A DNA stretch of 64,000 bases from positions 237,150,001 through 237,214,000 of the forward strand of contig OZ024741.1 of the NCBI GenBank assembly GCA_964016885.1. Reading direction: 5' to 3'. This stretch comes from Eledone cirrhosa (taxonomy: Eukaryota). The notes under the pieces were generated by a model. It saw nothing but the letters and a program-made list of their open reading frames with translations. It ran no database searches and had not been told where the DNA came from. This document shows, piece after piece, positions 11,811 to 46,440 of this stretch (position 1 is its first letter; every line of letters starts with the position of its first letter). The translations under genes were made by a program, and so were the position numbers.

Positions 11811-11846
11811 TGTGTCTGGTAGAAAAGCCCTCTTCAAAATCTCAAG

Positions 11847-13079
11847 ATGCAGTTTCCTCATAGAGAATCCAGAAACTTACATCTGCAGGTGGGTGAACAA
11901 GTATTTCCTGAGACAATCAGCCAAGAACAACACCAGCGGCAACAACCAGCACACCAACATCATCATCACCACCATCATCAACAACAACAACAGCAGCAGC
12001 AGCAGCAACAACATCATCACCACCACCACCAACAACATCAACAACACAGTCACTACAGTAATCAACAAAGCCATTACAACAACCCGAAGGTTAACTATAA
12101 TGGTACTTCAGTGAAAGACTCTAGTGATAAAAGAAATAAGAGACCTGCACATTCTGGCATGGCACCCTCAGCTAGTAAAGACCCAGTTTCTTCATCAGGG
12201 ACATCACACTCTCAAAATCTTTTCTTGCAATCACACATGGCTGTTAAGAAAAACTCAATCTGTACCACACCAAGCAGCAGCAGCACCACCAATAATAACA
12301 GCAACAACAATAGCACAGGTGGTGGAAATAAAAGCAGTGGCAGCTTGAAACTGAACCTGAATACCCACAGCCACTACAATATAAACAGCAACACTCTCAG
12401 TAACAGTGTCCTCAATGCTAGTGTCTTTAATTCAAAGCCGTCGTTTACAATGCAGAAATCTCAACAACAATCACAACGGCCTCAACAGCAGCAAAGGCCT
12501 CAGCAACAAGAACAAGACCAAGACCAAGATCAACAACAGCAACAGCAGCAATCCTACACAAAATATTCCCCTGAAAAACCATTTCATTGTAACATCTGTG
12601 GCAATCCATTCTTACGTCGTCGAACAATGGAAGTACATGAGAGAACTCACAGTGGTATACGACCATTTGCCTGCAGCTTGTGCTCTCGTCGGTTCTTCCA
12701 GAAAGACAAGTTAATCATTCATGAAAGAACTCACACAGGAGAGAGGCCATTTAGCTGTGTGTTCTGCTCAAAACGCTTTGCTCGCAAGGACACCCTCAAC
12801 ATCCATATAAGGATCCACACAGGGGAAAGGCCATATGTGTGTAGTTATTGTTCGAAAGGTTTCTCTCAGAAAGACAAATTACAGATTCATGAACGAACAC
12901 ATTCTGGTGTCAAACCTTACCATTGTTCTATTTGTGAGAAGCTGTTTGCACGAAAGGATGCACTAAATGTACATCTGCGAACACACACCGGAGAGAAGCC
13001 TCACCGCTGTGAATTCTGTGGGAAACAGTTCTCACAGAGAGACAAACTAATGCTGCACAAACAATCACATTCTACTTAA
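11847..13079 (+). CDS. C2H2 zinc-finger transcription factor, 410 aa, 6 C-terminal fingers, polyQ/polyH N-terminus
   Basis: Uninterrupted ORF with six CxxC-12-HxxxH fingers joined by TGERP/TGEKP/SGxxP linkers; low-complexity Q/H/S/N N-terminus. Confidence 0.93.
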   Translation: MQFPHRESRNLHLQVGEQVFPETISQEQHQRQQPAHQHHHHHHHQQQQQQQQQQQHHHHHHQQHQQHSHYSNQQSHYNNPKVNYNGTSVKDSSDKRNKRPAHSGMAPSASKDPVSSSGTSHSQNLFLQSHMAVKKNSICTTPSSSSTTNNNSNNNSTGGGNKSSGSLKLNLNTHSHYNINSNTLSNSVLNASVFNSKPSFTMQKSQQQSQRPQQQQRPQQQEQDQDQDQQQQQQQSYTKYSPEKPFHCNICGNPFLRRRTMEVHERTHSGIRPFACSLCSRRFFQKDKLIIHERTHTGERPFSCVFCSKRFARKDTLNIHIRIHTGERPYVCSYCSKGFSQKDKLQIHERTHSGVKPYHCSICEKLFARKDALNVHLRTHTGEKPHRCEFCGKQFSQRDKLMLHKQSHST

Positions 13080-27629: not shown

Positions 27630-29660
27630 TTATTTTGTATTTAACATATAATCATTGCTAGGTTTCATAGTGCCATGTATACTCTGGAAATTAGAACCAA
27701 TATTCTGTTTGCTGTTGTGTTTGAGGCTGGTGGAGAATGCACTTGGCATATTGTTCCAGCCGGGGTTTAACATGTGAGGCATGGCAAAACCTCTTGACCA
27801 GAGGTAGTTGTTCTCCCATGTCTGTGGCATCTCCTCCAAGTAGAACGAGTTTATCCGAGAGGGAGCAGAAGGTGTTGTTAAATTCGGTATCTGTAGTCTG
27901 GTGAGTGAATTGACTGCAGTCTGCTGGTGCGGAGACTCTGAGGGGTGGTGTTGTTGGAGATGAGTCTGTTGGTGAAGGTTACTGTTATGATGGCTGATGC
28001 TAGATGTTAGGGTACTGTTGTTGCTGCTATGTGGATGATGGGGGTGATGGGGACTATTGTAATCTATGGGATTGTCATTGCTGTGGTGGTCACTACTGTT
28101 ATGACTGCTCACACCAGTCTTTAATCCAGACTTCATGAGGCTGCCAGATGTTTGTGGCAAGTGCTGTTGATGGCTTTTGGTATGGGTGCTGCTGTTGAAA
28201 GCTGACGAAGGGGATGATAATGGTAGAGATGGCACAGGTGATTTCAGTGTGTTCATTTTAGCACTGACTGAGGGAGATGACATGGGAGACATCGAAGGAG
28301 AGACAATAGGGGAGACAGAGGTGGAGGAAGGTGCAGAAGCATGGTGTGAGCCAGCTGCAGAGGACGAATTTGAAGGATTTTTTATAAAGAGCTCACAGCC
28401 TGTTCTGGTCCGCTTGTGGTTATTTAAGTTAGCTTTCTGTGAGAAACATTTGCCACACCTGTCGCATGAGAATGGTTTCTCACCAGTGTGTGTTCTTAGA
28501 TGTGTTCGAAGGTTACATTGTTGACTGAACACCTTTGAGCATATCGTACAATAGAAAGGTTTCTCTCCTGTATGAACACGTTCGTGGTTACGTAGGTTAA
28601 TCTGTTGGCTGAATGCCTTTGGGCACATTGAACACTTATACATCTCCCCCGTGTGGATACGTTCATGGATTTTAAGAAAGAATGCATTACAAAATGCTTT
28701 CTTACAGTACTGACAGTAGAACATGTCTCCGGTGTGTATACGTTTATGGTCAATGAGATTTACTCTTTGGCTGAAAGCTTTGCCACAGACATCGCATACA
28801 AACGGCTTTTCTCCTGTGTGTGTCCTTAGGTGAAGTTTTAGGTTTCCCTTCTGACTAAATGCTTTACCACATGTTGTACAAGCGAAGGGTTTCTCACCAG
28901 TGTGTGTTCTCTCATGGTTACGTAGATTGATCTGCTGGCTGAATGCTTTTGGACAAAAGGCACACTGAAATGGCTTCTCTCCAGTATGTACACGCTCATG
29001 AATTTTTAGGAAAAATGCATTTGTAAAGGGTTTTTTACAGAAGGTGCAATAAAACATATCTCCTGTGTGAATACGGCGATGATCATCCAGATTGACTTTT
29101 TGGTAAAATGCTTTGCCGCATATCTCACAGGCATACGGGCGGTCTCCAGTATGTGTTCTTAGATGCAATTTTAGGTTACCTTTCTGGCTAAATGCTTTGC
29201 CACAGACTGAACAACTAAATGGTTTCTCTCCTGAATGAACCCGTTCATGGTTGCGGAGGTTGACTTGCTGGCTAAACGCTTTTGGACAGGTGGAACATCT
29301 AAAAGGCTTCTCACCAGTGTGCACACGTTCATGAATCTTTAGAAAGAAAGAATTGGAGAATCCTTTTTTGCAAACAGAACACTGGACATCTTTTGGGGCT
29401 AAGATTCGCTCATGGCCAATATTGCCATTACTCTCAATGTTGTTGTTGCTGTTGTTGTTATTGTTGTTGTTGTTATTGTTGCTGCTGTTTAAACCTGGTA
29501 CAAAACCCTTTGTATCACAACACAGTTCATTTTTATAGCTTTTTTCATCAAGAAAGCCTAGCTTCTCCGGACACTTCAGGTGGTCAGGTTGATAAAATGG
29601 CTGACCATAGATATTTGGTTGGTTCCCAATTGGAGGGAAAATTGGTTGCATGGAATACAT
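27630..29660 (-). CDS. C2H2 zinc-finger protein, 676 aa, 12 fingers (3 x 4-finger module), polyN N-terminus, S/H/P-rich C-terminus
   Basis: Uninterrupted ORF with 12 CxxC..H fingers and TGEKP/TGDM linkers. The last finger ends HKRTRTGC, lacking the second His. Confidence 0.95.
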   Translation of the reverse strand: MYSMQPIFPPIGNQPNIYGQPFYQPDHLKCPEKLGFLDEKSYKNELCCDTKGFVPGLNSSNNNNNNNNNNSNNNIESNGNIGHERILAPKDVQCSVCKKGFSNSFFLKIHERVHTGEKPFRCSTCPKAFSQQVNLRNHERVHSGEKPFSCSVCGKAFSQKGNLKLHLRTHTGDRPYACEICGKAFYQKVNLDDHRRIHTGDMFYCTFCKKPFTNAFFLKIHERVHTGEKPFQCAFCPKAFSQQINLRNHERTHTGEKPFACTTCGKAFSQKGNLKLHLRTHTGEKPFVCDVCGKAFSQRVNLIDHKRIHTGDMFYCQYCKKAFCNAFFLKIHERIHTGEMYKCSMCPKAFSQQINLRNHERVHTGEKPFYCTICSKVFSQQCNLRTHLRTHTGEKPFSCDRCGKCFSQKANLNNHKRTRTGCELFIKNPSNSSSAAGSHHASAPSSTSVSPIVSPSMSPMSSPSVSAKMNTLKSPVPSLPLSSPSSAFNSSTHTKSHQQHLPQTSGSLMKSGLKTGVSSHNSSDHHSNDNPIDYNSPHHPHHPHSSNNSTLTSSISHHNSNLHQQTHLQQHHPSESPHQQTAVNSLTRLQIPNLTTPSAPSRINSFYLEEMPQTWENNYLWSRGFAMPHMLNPGWNNMPSAFSTSLKHNSKQNIGSNFQSIHGTMKPSNDYMLNTK

Positions 29661-29889
29661 TCTCTTCTTTAGGTCAATTTATTCCAGAAACATTATTTTT
29701 ACCATCATCTTTGATATATATATATATAGTGAGATATATATATATATATACATAAATATGTCTTGTTATTTACTTGACACCGGGTGAAACAGCTCAATGG
29801 AGGAGGAGAAGAGCTTTCAGTTTCAAATAACAAGGTCTATGTTTCAAATCAGAGAATCTTTCTAAACATGGGGACAGTAAAAGAAGTTG

Positions 29890-36868: not shown

Positions 36869-36947
<79 letters not shown>

Positions 36948-36950
<3 letters not shown>

Positions 36951-37140
36951 CAAAGAGATATTTAATTTGTTGGTTATTCAACAAATTTATTTATAACAGA
37001 TTCAAAGCACTCTACAAGTTTTCTGGAGTATAATATCAATGATATTAATGAATGGAAACTATATTTATAAAACCATATTTATTTTATTATATATATTTCA
37101 AGGGTACCAACATTTTGGTACACTCTCATCAGATAAAATA
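36948..37140 (-). ncRNA. Type I hammerhead ribozyme (canonical core) plus about 130-nt tail; Penelope/retrozyme-like element
   Basis: Minus strand 37140-37080: TATTTTAT CTGATGA GAGTGTACCAA-AATG-TTGGTACCCTT GAAA TATATA TA ATAAAATA. This gives an 8-bp stem I, an 11-bp stem II with one mismatch and a palindromic stem III. Confidence 0.8.
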
Positions 37141-37199
37141 CAAAATTTATTTTATAAATGTTGACATACCCAAGAAACCAGACCTTATAGGTTCAGGTT

Positions 37200-38966
37200 C
37201 AGTTTGGATATAGCTCAATTCTTAGTTGGCCTACAAATGATGTACTAACAGAAAGTCCTACCTTGAAAGAAGTTGAAGTGGCTGGAAAACAATTCAATAA
37301 TAGAAAATTGCCAGGAAGGGATGGTATTTGTGCTGAGTTACAGAAATGTGGAAGTTGAAACATTCTTTGACTTCTTACAAACTGATACGTAAGGTTTAGG
37401 AAGAAGAAAGCATTCCTCAAGACTGGAAAGATGCATTGATGGTGGTGCTTTATAAAGGGAAAACTGCAAATGATGATTGTGGTAATTATCATGGGATAAC
37501 CCTCTTGTCAGTTTTGGGAAAAGTCCTGTGTAAGAACGTGATGAATAGATTGCTTGATAACATCACTAGCAATATTCTTCCTGAGTCACAGTGTGACTTT
37601 AGAAGTGGCAGAGGGACAATAGACATGATCTTTTTGTGAGGCAACTACAAGAGAAGTGCATTAGGGAATGGATTTGTATCACGTTTTTGTTGACTTGACA
37701 AAGGCTTTTGATACAGTGAACATAACTGCTTTATGGAAGATTCTGACTAAATTTGGTTGTCCTGACAACTGAGAGGGTTTCATGATGGCATGCAAGCTTG
37801 TGTTAATGTATGTGGAGAGGTGTCAGATCCCATTTTTGTTGAAAATGGGGTAAAACAAGGGGCATATACCAGCACATACACTGTTTGCATTATATTTCTC
37901 TATGGTTTTCCTTAAGGCAGTTGAGGATTGTACATATGGAATTTACCTCAAGTTTCATTTGATGGGTAAGTTGTTTAACATCAGATGGTTTGCTGCCAAA
38001 ACAAAGGTGCTCACTTCTTTAATACATGAATTTGTGTATGCAGATGATTGTGATCTTGTTGCTCACCCTGAGAGTGATGTGCAGCACCTGATGGATTCAT
38101 TTTCGGAGGCATGTAGTGCATTGAATCTGACAATCAGTCTGACCAAGACAGTTGTCGTGTATCAACATACTCCGGGCAAGGAATTCACTGAGACTAGCAT
38201 TTATGTGTATGACAACACATTGAAAGCTGTGGATAAATTTGTGTATTTCATCAATACTCAGTATCCATTGGAAACACGTGAGTGATGTTGAAGAGCTGAA
38301 ACAATGTTATTTTGAACGTACTGAATCTCTCATAATTCAATATAGATTGCGCTGGAGCGACCATGTTATAAGACTGCCACATGATCATATTCCTAAGCAG
38401 TTAGTTAAAGGCAACTGGCCAAGACATAAACCAAAACTCAGGTATAAAAACTACATCAAACGAGCTTTGATAAAAATAAAAAATCATAGAAGATAACTGG
38501 GAAGACATTGCCTTAGACCGATCATCATGGAGGAAAAGTGTATTTAATGGAAAACAGGAATTTGAAGAATCTTGTGTGGAGCATGAAAGGTTAAGGTGTG
38601 ATCTATGTAACGGTCTACACAATATTACTTTACATCGAAATGAGTGTAATGAGAGTGGTCAGATTTGTCTCAGTAAAGCTGGTCTTAGAAGTCACCATAG
38701 GAGTCGTGTACAAAATGTTGCTGATTATGGATTCTTTGGCATTTCTTCCAGTTGGAAGTGTGGAAAACAATGTGCCTCAGCTGGTGGATCCAAACGTCAT
38801 TTGAAAGCTCACCAAAACAAAACAAAACAGGGAACCAAATTGGAAGTAATGTTCATCACTGCAGCATACAAAGAAAGGAATGTAAGTCCTCTGCAGGTCT
38901 AAAGAGCCATGTTCATGGAACCCATGTGCGATGGGGGGAAGTGACATTTTTTGAAATTGAAATATA

Positions 38967-43250: not shown

Positions 43251-43457
43251 ATATAGTTGATAAATGAAACAAACAAAACACAGGAGGCAATTTTTACACA
43301 GATTAGGTTCGCGCTTGGTGGAAACATATATAAGTATATATGTGTGTGTGTGTGAATATATATATATCTATATATATATATAAGTCTAACCCATGCTAGC
43401 GTGGAAAGTGGACGTTAAATGAGGATGATGATGATATGTGTATATATATATATATAT

Positions 43458-43645
43458 ATGAAAGCGCACCATAGTTTGCTCTGGTGGCCCTTGAAATATG
43501 TATAATGAAATAAATATGGTTTTATAAATATAGTTTCCATTTGTTAATATATTGTATATTTACTCCAATAATTTGTTGAGTGCTTTATATCAGTTATAAA
43601 AATATTTTGCTTGTTGTATCCCAACAAATTAAATATAACCTCTAC
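43458..43645 (+). mobile_element. Second copy of the 37-kb hammerhead element, truncated inside the core
   Basis: CCCTTGAAATATGTATAATGAAATAAATATGGTTTTATAAATATAGTTTCCATT...CCAACAAATTAAATAT aligns with the reverse complement of 36950-37103. Confidence 0.75.
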
Positions 43646-43658
43646 ATATATATATATA

Positions 43659-44415: not shown

Positions 44416-44842
44416 CATATATATTTCTTTATATATATGTTTGAAAACTGTCTTAGATATTTCACTGTGTTATAGGAAATAGTCTAACATGGCATGTAAG
44501 CCCCATACACGCACATCATCATCACGCACATCATCATCATCATTTTACGTCCACTTTTCCCTGCTTGCAAGAGTGGGACGGGTCCTATTCAGCACAGCAT
44601 CTCTCCATTCATCACGGTCCTTCGTCATCTCCTCTGTGGACTTCAGTGATCTGAGGTCAGTTCTCAAGAATCTTATTTTGACTATAGAAAATAGTCTAAT
44701 ATGACATATTAGACTCATTTACATATGAACCTAAAATAACTGTGTAATTTTGCTTCCTGCATTTGTTTTGTTTCATTTATTAACTATATATATATATGAA
44801 TGTATATATAGTGTATTTTGCAATACACTGTGTGCTTAATTA

Positions 44843-44925
44843 AATTTTCAGCAAACAGGGGAGATAAGCTGACAGAACTCTGTTTCGTACTTGTTGGTAC
44901 TTATCAAAGCTCACTACTCTCCCTG
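44843..44925 (-). ncRNA. Type I hammerhead ribozyme, U3-A8 core variant (copy 1)
   Basis: Minus strand: GGGAGAGTAGTGAGCT TTGATAA GTAC-CAACAA-GTAC GAAAC AGAGTTCT GTC AGCTTATCTCCCC. Confidence 0.75.
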
Positions 44926-45130
44926 TCACTACTTTAAAACAATAGCGTATGGTCTTCAAAATGCTTTTAATTAAGCATAGTGTATTGCAAAATACACTAT
45001 ATATACATTCATATACATATCGCTATTTCAGAACACTAATTTTAATTTTCAATTTCTGCTGCACCGGCAGCCACTCTGTATAATCAATTCCTGATTATTA
45101 CTGGAATTCTATAAGAATCCAACACACATA

Positions 45131-45224
45131 ATTTTCAGCAAACAGGGAGAGTAGTGAGCTTTGATAAGTACCAACAAGTACGAAACAGAGCTCTGTCAGC
45201 TTATCTCTCCTGTTTGCTGAAAAT
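45131..45224 (+). ncRNA. Extended type I hammerhead ribozyme, U3-A8 core variant (copy 2)
   Basis: TTGATAA at 45161-45167, stem II GTAC/GTAC with loop CAACAA, GAAAC at 45182-45186, palindromic AGAGCTCT, GTC at 45195-45197. Stem I 45131-45160 pairs with 45198-45224, with an internal bulge. Confidence 0.8.
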
Positions 45225-45411
45225 TTAAGTAAGTGACACTGTCACTACTTTAAAACAATAGCGTAAGGTCTTCAAAATGCTTTTAATTAAGCATACAGTG
45301 TATTGCAAAATACACTATATATACATTCATATATATATCGCTATTTCAGAGCACCAATTCTAATTTTATATATATGCATGTATATTTATATATATATATA
45401 TATATATATAC

Positions 45412-46242: not shown

Positions 46243-46436
46243 ATGGAGGAAATGTGGTAAGGAACCAGGTGGACCATAACGCACCAAAGTACTCAATACT
46301 TAGGGTAGTAGAGTGGGTAATAGGAATGAGTAGGACCCCGACGGCTGAGCTCAAGCCGTTTCGACGGCTAATTCTGGACAGTCCAGAATTAGCCGTCGAA
46401 ACGGCTTGAGCTCAGCCGTCGGGTCCTACTCGTTCC

Positions 46437-46440
<4 letters not shown>
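46243..46440. repeat. Family D element ending in a near-perfect palindrome of about 118 bp
   Basis: Arms 46321-46379 and 46381-46438 are centred on A46380. Other D copies are at 56571, 59755, 59950 and 60005. Confidence 0.85.

Follow-up and report, generated by a model that had tools for sequence, protein, structure and literature searches.

A dispersed 319-nt repeat with a U3-A8 hammerhead core in Eledone cirrhosa, probably a retrozyme inserted in the manner of Penelope elements

A 64,000-nt stretch of the Eledone cirrhosa genome (GenBank assembly GCA_964016885.1, contig OZ024741.1, positions 237,150,001 to 237,214,000 of the forward strand; hereafter the window) contains two inverted copies of a hammerhead-like motif with the core UUGAUAA, which raises the question of what kind of element they belong to, how it arrived there and whether the motif acts as a ribozyme. 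The reading preferred here, with a probability of roughly 0.75, is a dispersed non-autonomous retrozyme of 319 nt that carries a type I hammerhead and was copied into (TA)n sites by a reverse transcriptase/endonuclease of Penelope-like type.

The insertion and its two hammerhead copies

Both copies lie within a two-armed insertion of a 319-nt repeat (44788..45367, no strand assigned as a whole), which is flanked by (TA)n runs. The inverted arm (44788..44926, minus strand) consists of unit positions 95-186 followed by 235-291, positions 187-234 being absent, and its short end (position 291) lies inside a TA run. The direct arm (plus strand) reads unit 192-319 and then the full 1-319, i.e. a 5'-truncated first unit (44923..45047) is joined head to tail to a complete unit (45048..45366; 34% G+C; circle predicted to be highly self-paired). 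The 28-nt tail (unit 292-319; 45339..45366, plus strand) is present on the plus arm only. The two hammerhead copies are the arms of a single insertion and not independent evidence; since both belong to it, their common core is a matter of shared descent. No stop-free frame of at least 90 aa was listed over 44788-45367 (low-complexity frames filtered out). Elsewhere in the window, C2H2 zinc fingers (Pfam zf-C2H2) were recognized in two long reading frames, at 11823-13076 (plus strand) and 27633-29678 (minus strand).

The plus hammerhead copy (45131..45226) has a long stem I, the core U3-U4-G5-A6-U7-A8-A9 (TTGATAA in the DNA; 45161..45167), stem II with the 6-nt loop CAACAA (45168..45181) and a 12-nt self-complementary stem III region with C17 (45185..45197). 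In the minus copy (44838..44926) the core is at 44907-44901, stem II at 44900-44887 and stem III at 44883-44872. The same core, stem II GTAC/CAACAA/GTAC, GAAAC and GTC occur in both copies, at the positions read in a first-pass annotation of the letters alone, and the cut that it placed after 45197 agrees with the GTC at 45195-45197 and the site predicted here; on the minus strand the predicted cut falls between 44871 and 44870. The long stem I and palindromic stem III that it ascribed to both copies were found in full in the plus copy only: 5' truncation at unit position 95 leaves the minus copy a short distal stem I, and its loop III is AGUU, not AGCU. A 92-nt comparison of the two copies gave 96.7% identity. 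At this hammerhead one variant dominates in run X4 (a run of a kind not on record; window 44877-45331), with a G-U pair at 10.1-11.1, unlike run X1 (kind likewise not on record), which gave an apparent mixture; neither run counts as evidence here.

Within the 64-kb window only these two sites matched a loose type I descriptor, as against a total of four matches over 30 locally shuffled windows (mean 0.13). The marks of a type I hammerhead, namely a conserved core whose positions 3 and 8 form a Watson-Crick pair, GAAA and an NUH site, were found, and judged by its sequence the locus appears to hold such a hammerhead, for which self-cutting is predicted. Regarding other assignments, membership in Rfam Hammerhead_HH9 (RF02275) was rejected for both copies, the weak matches of 23.6 and 21.8 bits lying below the gathering score of 52 bits; in this weak alignment the likeness to HH9 consists of the type I layout, a similar 6-nt loop II and the position of the stem I bulge. 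A C3-G8 copy of the repeat (L159) gave no hammerhead match at E 0.1. The minimal hammerhead of Penelope elements, recognized by a long helix II, an extra base after A9 and little or no helix III, was rejected on account of the 4-bp helix II, the lack of an extra base after A9 and the 4-bp helix III. The Rfam microRNA matches in the window were rejected as TA-repeat noise.

Two lineages of one repeat family

The ribozyme family postulated from these two copies exists, with at least 1,473 hammerheads in the 3.0-Gb genome (exact-pattern searches built on one motif scaffold, the total being a lower bound). C3 occurs in 364 copies (344 C3-G8, 13 C3-A8, 4 C3-C8 and 3 C3-U8) and A8 without C3 in 1,088 (all U3 among the first 100 listed), while the 21 copies with neither C3 nor A8 comprise 12 U3-G8, 2 U3-C8, 3 A3-G8 and 4 G3-G8. 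About three quarters of the family's hammerheads are in the U3-A8 lineage and mismatched cores are rare; searches fixed on CUGANGA would miss this larger lineage, i.e. about three quarters of the family, as the annotation had foreseen. The canonical core combined with the window's exact stem II gave no match, and the C3-G8 lineage emerged only with a relaxed loop.

In a tree of 131 near-full units (92 U-A, 32 C-G, 5 mismatched and 2 gapped at 3-8), a single split separates the U3-A8 and C3-G8 lineages, so that the 3-8 covariation amounts to one event. Two sister lineages, each of which has expanded, are thereby recognized, and the U3-A8 pair appears from the tree to have arisen once. Five subfamilies lie 2.7-5.4% from their own majority sequences, and from this similar divergence both lineages have spread over a similar period. 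The suggestion that U3-A8 is a compensated pair is borne out by comparison with the C3-G8 sister lineage, and the genome-wide count proposed as a check found the covariation to be real, though as a single event. Regarding eight aligned copies, stems II, III and proximal I are 100% paired and four pairs, namely 3-8, 10.1-11.1 and two of distal stem I, have both partners changed, versus 0-1 doubly changed pairs in slid controls; the count of four was equalled in 47 of 500 shuffles, and the eight rows are related to each other. In the U3-A8 subfamily with the most sampled units, positions 2.5 and 1.5 form a U-U mismatch.

No paper describing this 319-nt family was found in a literature search with subscription journals and repeat databases outside its scope. 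Natural U3-A8 hammerheads have already been published (Perreault 2011, PMC3088659), the in vitro activity of this pair resting on a citation given there, and minimal hammerheads with U3-A8 of the Schistosoma element Cercyon yielded about 1,300 matches (PMC4209133). The compensated pair is common to these and to the 319-nt family, which differs from them, as described in the two papers, in that its hammerhead is extended, stems II and III being of 4 bp each, and that a C3-G8 sister lineage survives alongside. The value of the family lies in its use as test material, as it offers both cores as natural sister lineages together with natural single-mismatch copies. Another repeat, of 592 bp and in tandem and inverted arrangement, also has a UUGAUAA core, with a long stem II region (L202:1721-3294); since its matches to the 319-nt unit are of only 11 nt, it represents a separate family, so that this genome has the U3-A8 core in two families or more.

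Insertion layout and relation to known retrozymes

At 79 loci chosen by place (the array L111 set aside), 63 of 68 same-strand joins lead from unit end to unit start. Arms hold up to three units in tandem, are 5'-truncated at scattered points and reach 994 nt in length; of 238 5' ends, just 4 fall 5 nt or less from the cut site. Divergent inverted arms were found at 95 of 131 loci and 58 of 93 further loci (153 of 224), with outer ends mostly at unit 291 or 319 and running into (TA)n. Among the pairs with two classifiable ends, 53 of 59 and 39 of 44 have the 28-nt tail at exactly one end (92 of 103; binomial p 4e-17); the 37 and 15 pairs in which an end was truncated do not enter this count. 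A common palindromic short repeat also occurs at TA sites (window 46245-46440; L070:3139-3366), and at L070 it directly abuts the 5' end of a unit.

Rare variants are common to parts of one insertion at 34 of 671 and 13 of 330 sites, versus 984 of 218,807 between loci (a ratio of about 10), which fits copying from one template molecule; gene conversion or uncut tandem transcripts could also yield long arms and shared variants. As the copying passes the cut site without stopping, the template would be a circle or an uncut tandem, which DNA alone cannot separate.

Partial tandems, an inverted 5'-truncated copy and a tail of 30-40 bp on one end are given as features of Penelope insertions, the one-sided tail being described as specific to them and absent from ordinary non-LTR insertion (Craig et al. 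2021, PMC8557442). Insertions of the 319-nt family carry a countable signature of this type, with a partial tandem, an inverted 5'-truncated copy, a one-sided tail and a microsatellite target, and the (TA)n targets are likewise shared with the Hydra-clade Penelope-like elements of that paper; the 28-nt tail is slightly below the published length. The family of this genome that bears a CxCX5C linker has two fixed ends, as has the 319-nt repeat, from which it differs in its tail of about 87 nt; the 319-nt unit has no reading frame.

Non-LTR retrozymes are recognized as head-to-tail repeats of 150-450 bp with a G+C content below 50% and one hammerhead per unit, all of which was found here (319 nt, 34%). 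Metazoan members are expressed as circles in coral (units of 220-245 nt), mussel (350-390 nt) and axolotl (330/350 nt) (Cervera and de la Pena 2020, PMC7229834). The 319-nt family shares with the retrozymes described there a short, low-GC, non-coding tandem unit with one type I hammerhead of the canonical type, a predicted self-paired circle and the coexistence with Penelope elements that carry minimal hammerheads; unlike them, it has the U3-A8 core in its larger lineage and occurs mostly as dispersed two-armed inverted insertions with fixed ends. Penelope elements have been proposed as the mobiliser of retrozymes (PMC7229834, PMC7761336), and vertebrate retrozymes have been presented as non-autonomous Penelope derivatives (Li, Clavereau and Pollet, bioRxiv 10.64898/2026.07.22.740005). 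The present results agree with the preprint on the mobilising class, whereas the evidence is of a different kind: co-occurrence and terminal-repeat homology in vertebrates as set out there, insertion layout in an invertebrate-type genome here, where no homology to the one candidate partner tested was found. By the features that could be tested, the repeat is likely a non-LTR retrozyme, works like one and is inserted in Penelope fashion. As its class, the U3-A8 core and the link to Penelope have each been published before, it is not a new kind of element.

Predicted folding, the partner element and alternative explanations

Folding energies (ViennaRNA) refer to secondary structure alone and take in neither tertiary contacts nor Mg2+ nor a known-active control hammerhead. 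For the isolated window copies and the 319-nt circle, U3-U4-G5 and the end of stem I are predicted to pair with the 5' strand of stem III (probability 0.99); as the core is thus engaged, the lowest-energy fold is predicted not to be the hammerhead (hereafter the off fold), and the active fold of the isolated copies would cost +7.2 and +4.3 kcal/mol. The circle has a predicted energy of -93.1 kcal/mol with 62% of its bases paired (z -9.3 versus 100 shuffles). Exchanging the 3-8 pair in silico was 1.2-3.0 kcal/mol worse in U3-A8 backgrounds and about 1.1-1.3 kcal/mol better in C3-G8 backgrounds, from which U3 is predicted to loosen the off fold. Regarding natural tandem pairs, the double hammerhead was predicted below two monomer hammerheads in 20 of 22 and the opposite in 2 of 22, which in these models supports the earlier view that the palindromic stem III favours a dimer and matches the regulation described in PMC4209133; its median cost was +6.8 kcal/mol (16 U3-A8 pairs). 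In read-through RNA of either strand the antisense copy comes first, a long hairpin is predicted and the active fold would cost +72 and +75 kcal/mol. With one hammerhead per strand, read-through of 44788-45367 cannot release a monomer by itself, and with that hammerhead buried in the read-through RNA this locus is likely a dead end.

In the retrozyme reading, tandem transcripts would fold into a double hammerhead via the self-complementary stem III and be cut once per unit, and the 319-nt monomer would probably be closed into a circle, where predicted pairing between the core and stem III would keep it off. The enzyme would begin at two fixed positions (unit 319 and 291) and continue around a single template, which would produce arms longer than a unit. 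The off fold is predicted to be about 1-3 kcal/mol weaker with the U3-A8 pair, which is presumed to have arisen once. In most metazoan circles the hammerhead is described as free to fold (PMC7229834), whereas self-pairing is predicted to block it here, and this gives a concrete prediction for a point left open in that paper, namely how animal retrozyme circles avoid self-cutting. A more specific version is tentative, with the odds rather against it: the core would be under a built-in lock, off in monomer and circle, so that only tandem RNA cuts; the U3-A8 switch would have retuned this lock after loop III became fully self-complementary; and a Hydra-clade Penelope enzyme would copy the circle onto both strands from the two fixed starts, as fusions at L020, L053, L109 and L286 (see below) suggest. 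If true, it would explain how an animal retrozyme circle avoids self-cutting and name the partner enzyme.

The predicted off fold also bears on an unlikely alternative, in which the repeat is mobilised by Penelope while its hammerhead is inactive, uncut tandem transcripts being the template and the helices being kept for recognition by the reverse transcriptase. The off fold is predicted in all five subfamilies (98 of 131 units scored, the remainder lying outside the strict pattern) with median probabilities of 0.63-0.99, the 5' ends do not pile up at the cut site, and 8 of 9 Xenopus retrozyme dimers were reported without cleavage, which was recorded in one of the nine (bioRxiv 10.64898/2026.07.22.740005). 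The 10 invariant core positions are compatible with it too: no change occurs there among subfamily majorities, yet only 40 of 281 columns vary at all, and the invariance (p about 0.22) is not significant on its own. Against an inactive hammerhead, the passage from C3-G8 to U3-A8 preserves a tertiary pair with a known role in the catalytic fold, positions 3 and 8 stay matched while position 7 varies freely among all four bases, and in the best-preserved tandems the double hammerhead is predicted within about 1 kcal/mol of the ensemble.

As to the enzyme that would serve the retrozyme, a Hydra-like Penelope family that is abundant, targets TA and has its own minimal C3-G8 hammerhead (long helix II) is represented by 3' ends in the window (43455-43648 and 36936-37210) and at L031-L061. 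Fusions between a unit and a Hydra-like element with no TA run at the joint occur at L020:1042-1714, L053:1152-1830, L109:2528-3179 and L286:2351-3106; in two of the four the partners meet head to head, as the arms of a single insertion do, and at L020 the element's tailed end is paired with the unit's short end. The fusions may represent template switches. Direct joints to a unit were found for 5 of 74 Hydra-like segments versus 3 of 185 other repeat segments (p 0.045); leaving out L031 and L053 gives p 0.35, and one of the three control joints (L192) adjoins a TA run. Given this weak excess, the Hydra-like partner is a lead only, and as the mobilising partner the element is the best current guess, and a weak one. 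Its 3' end and the unit have no significant similarity (between 15 and 183 of 200 shuffles reached its score). A further family of Penelope-like type (L031:468-1993), in which RT-like, cysteine-linker and GIY-YIG pieces were recognized, is common near unit loci, and none of its 23 segments was fused to a unit.

Two units at L031 have a coding fragment of a Penelope element between them. This fragment carries the CxCX5C linker, which is given for the Hydra clade in PMC8557442, and on this motif only it is putatively Hydra-like. This arrangement is what would be expected if the 319-nt unit were the terminal repeat of an unseen autonomous Penelope-like element and the loci its 5'-truncated copies, an explanation considered improbable. 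Apart from L031, it would account for the insertion layout, which is that of Penelope elements; Xenopus retrozymes are reported to be homologous to terminal repeats (bioRxiv 10.64898/2026.07.22.740005); and the analysis covered some 255 loci of a family that has more than 1,000. However, none of the 29 other copies of the L031 element runs on into the unit; they close with the element's 3' end, which has a minimal hammerhead and a pair of fixed ends (spaced by about 87 nt) of its own, and a 14-bp duplication at L031 suggests a later insertion. Among the sequences abutting 45 free 5' ends of units none recurs, no RT plus GIY-YIG frame flanked by a unit was found in the loci fetched, and joins go from unit to unit, with up to three per arm and a long array at L111. 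The resemblance to Penelope terminal repeats noted in the annotation is upheld in these loci as regards the Penelope-like mode of insertion and does not extend to a terminal repeat of a coding Penelope element.

That the two copies act here as monomeric ribozymes on host transcripts of either strand is highly improbable, since, with both cores intact and a stem III able to form 4 bp as a monomer, arm-to-arm pairing in read-through RNA would nevertheless bury the ribozyme, so that the cleavage of either strand's transcripts expected in the annotation fails for such RNA; isolated copies are predicted to favour the off fold, and inverted pairs are the family's usual insertion by-product. A different arrangement of the repeat was seen at L111 (G000:C1:268922000-268931999), where an array of about 8 kb is made up of more than 20 units and part units, whose orientation changes and which follow a higher-order pattern that repeats.
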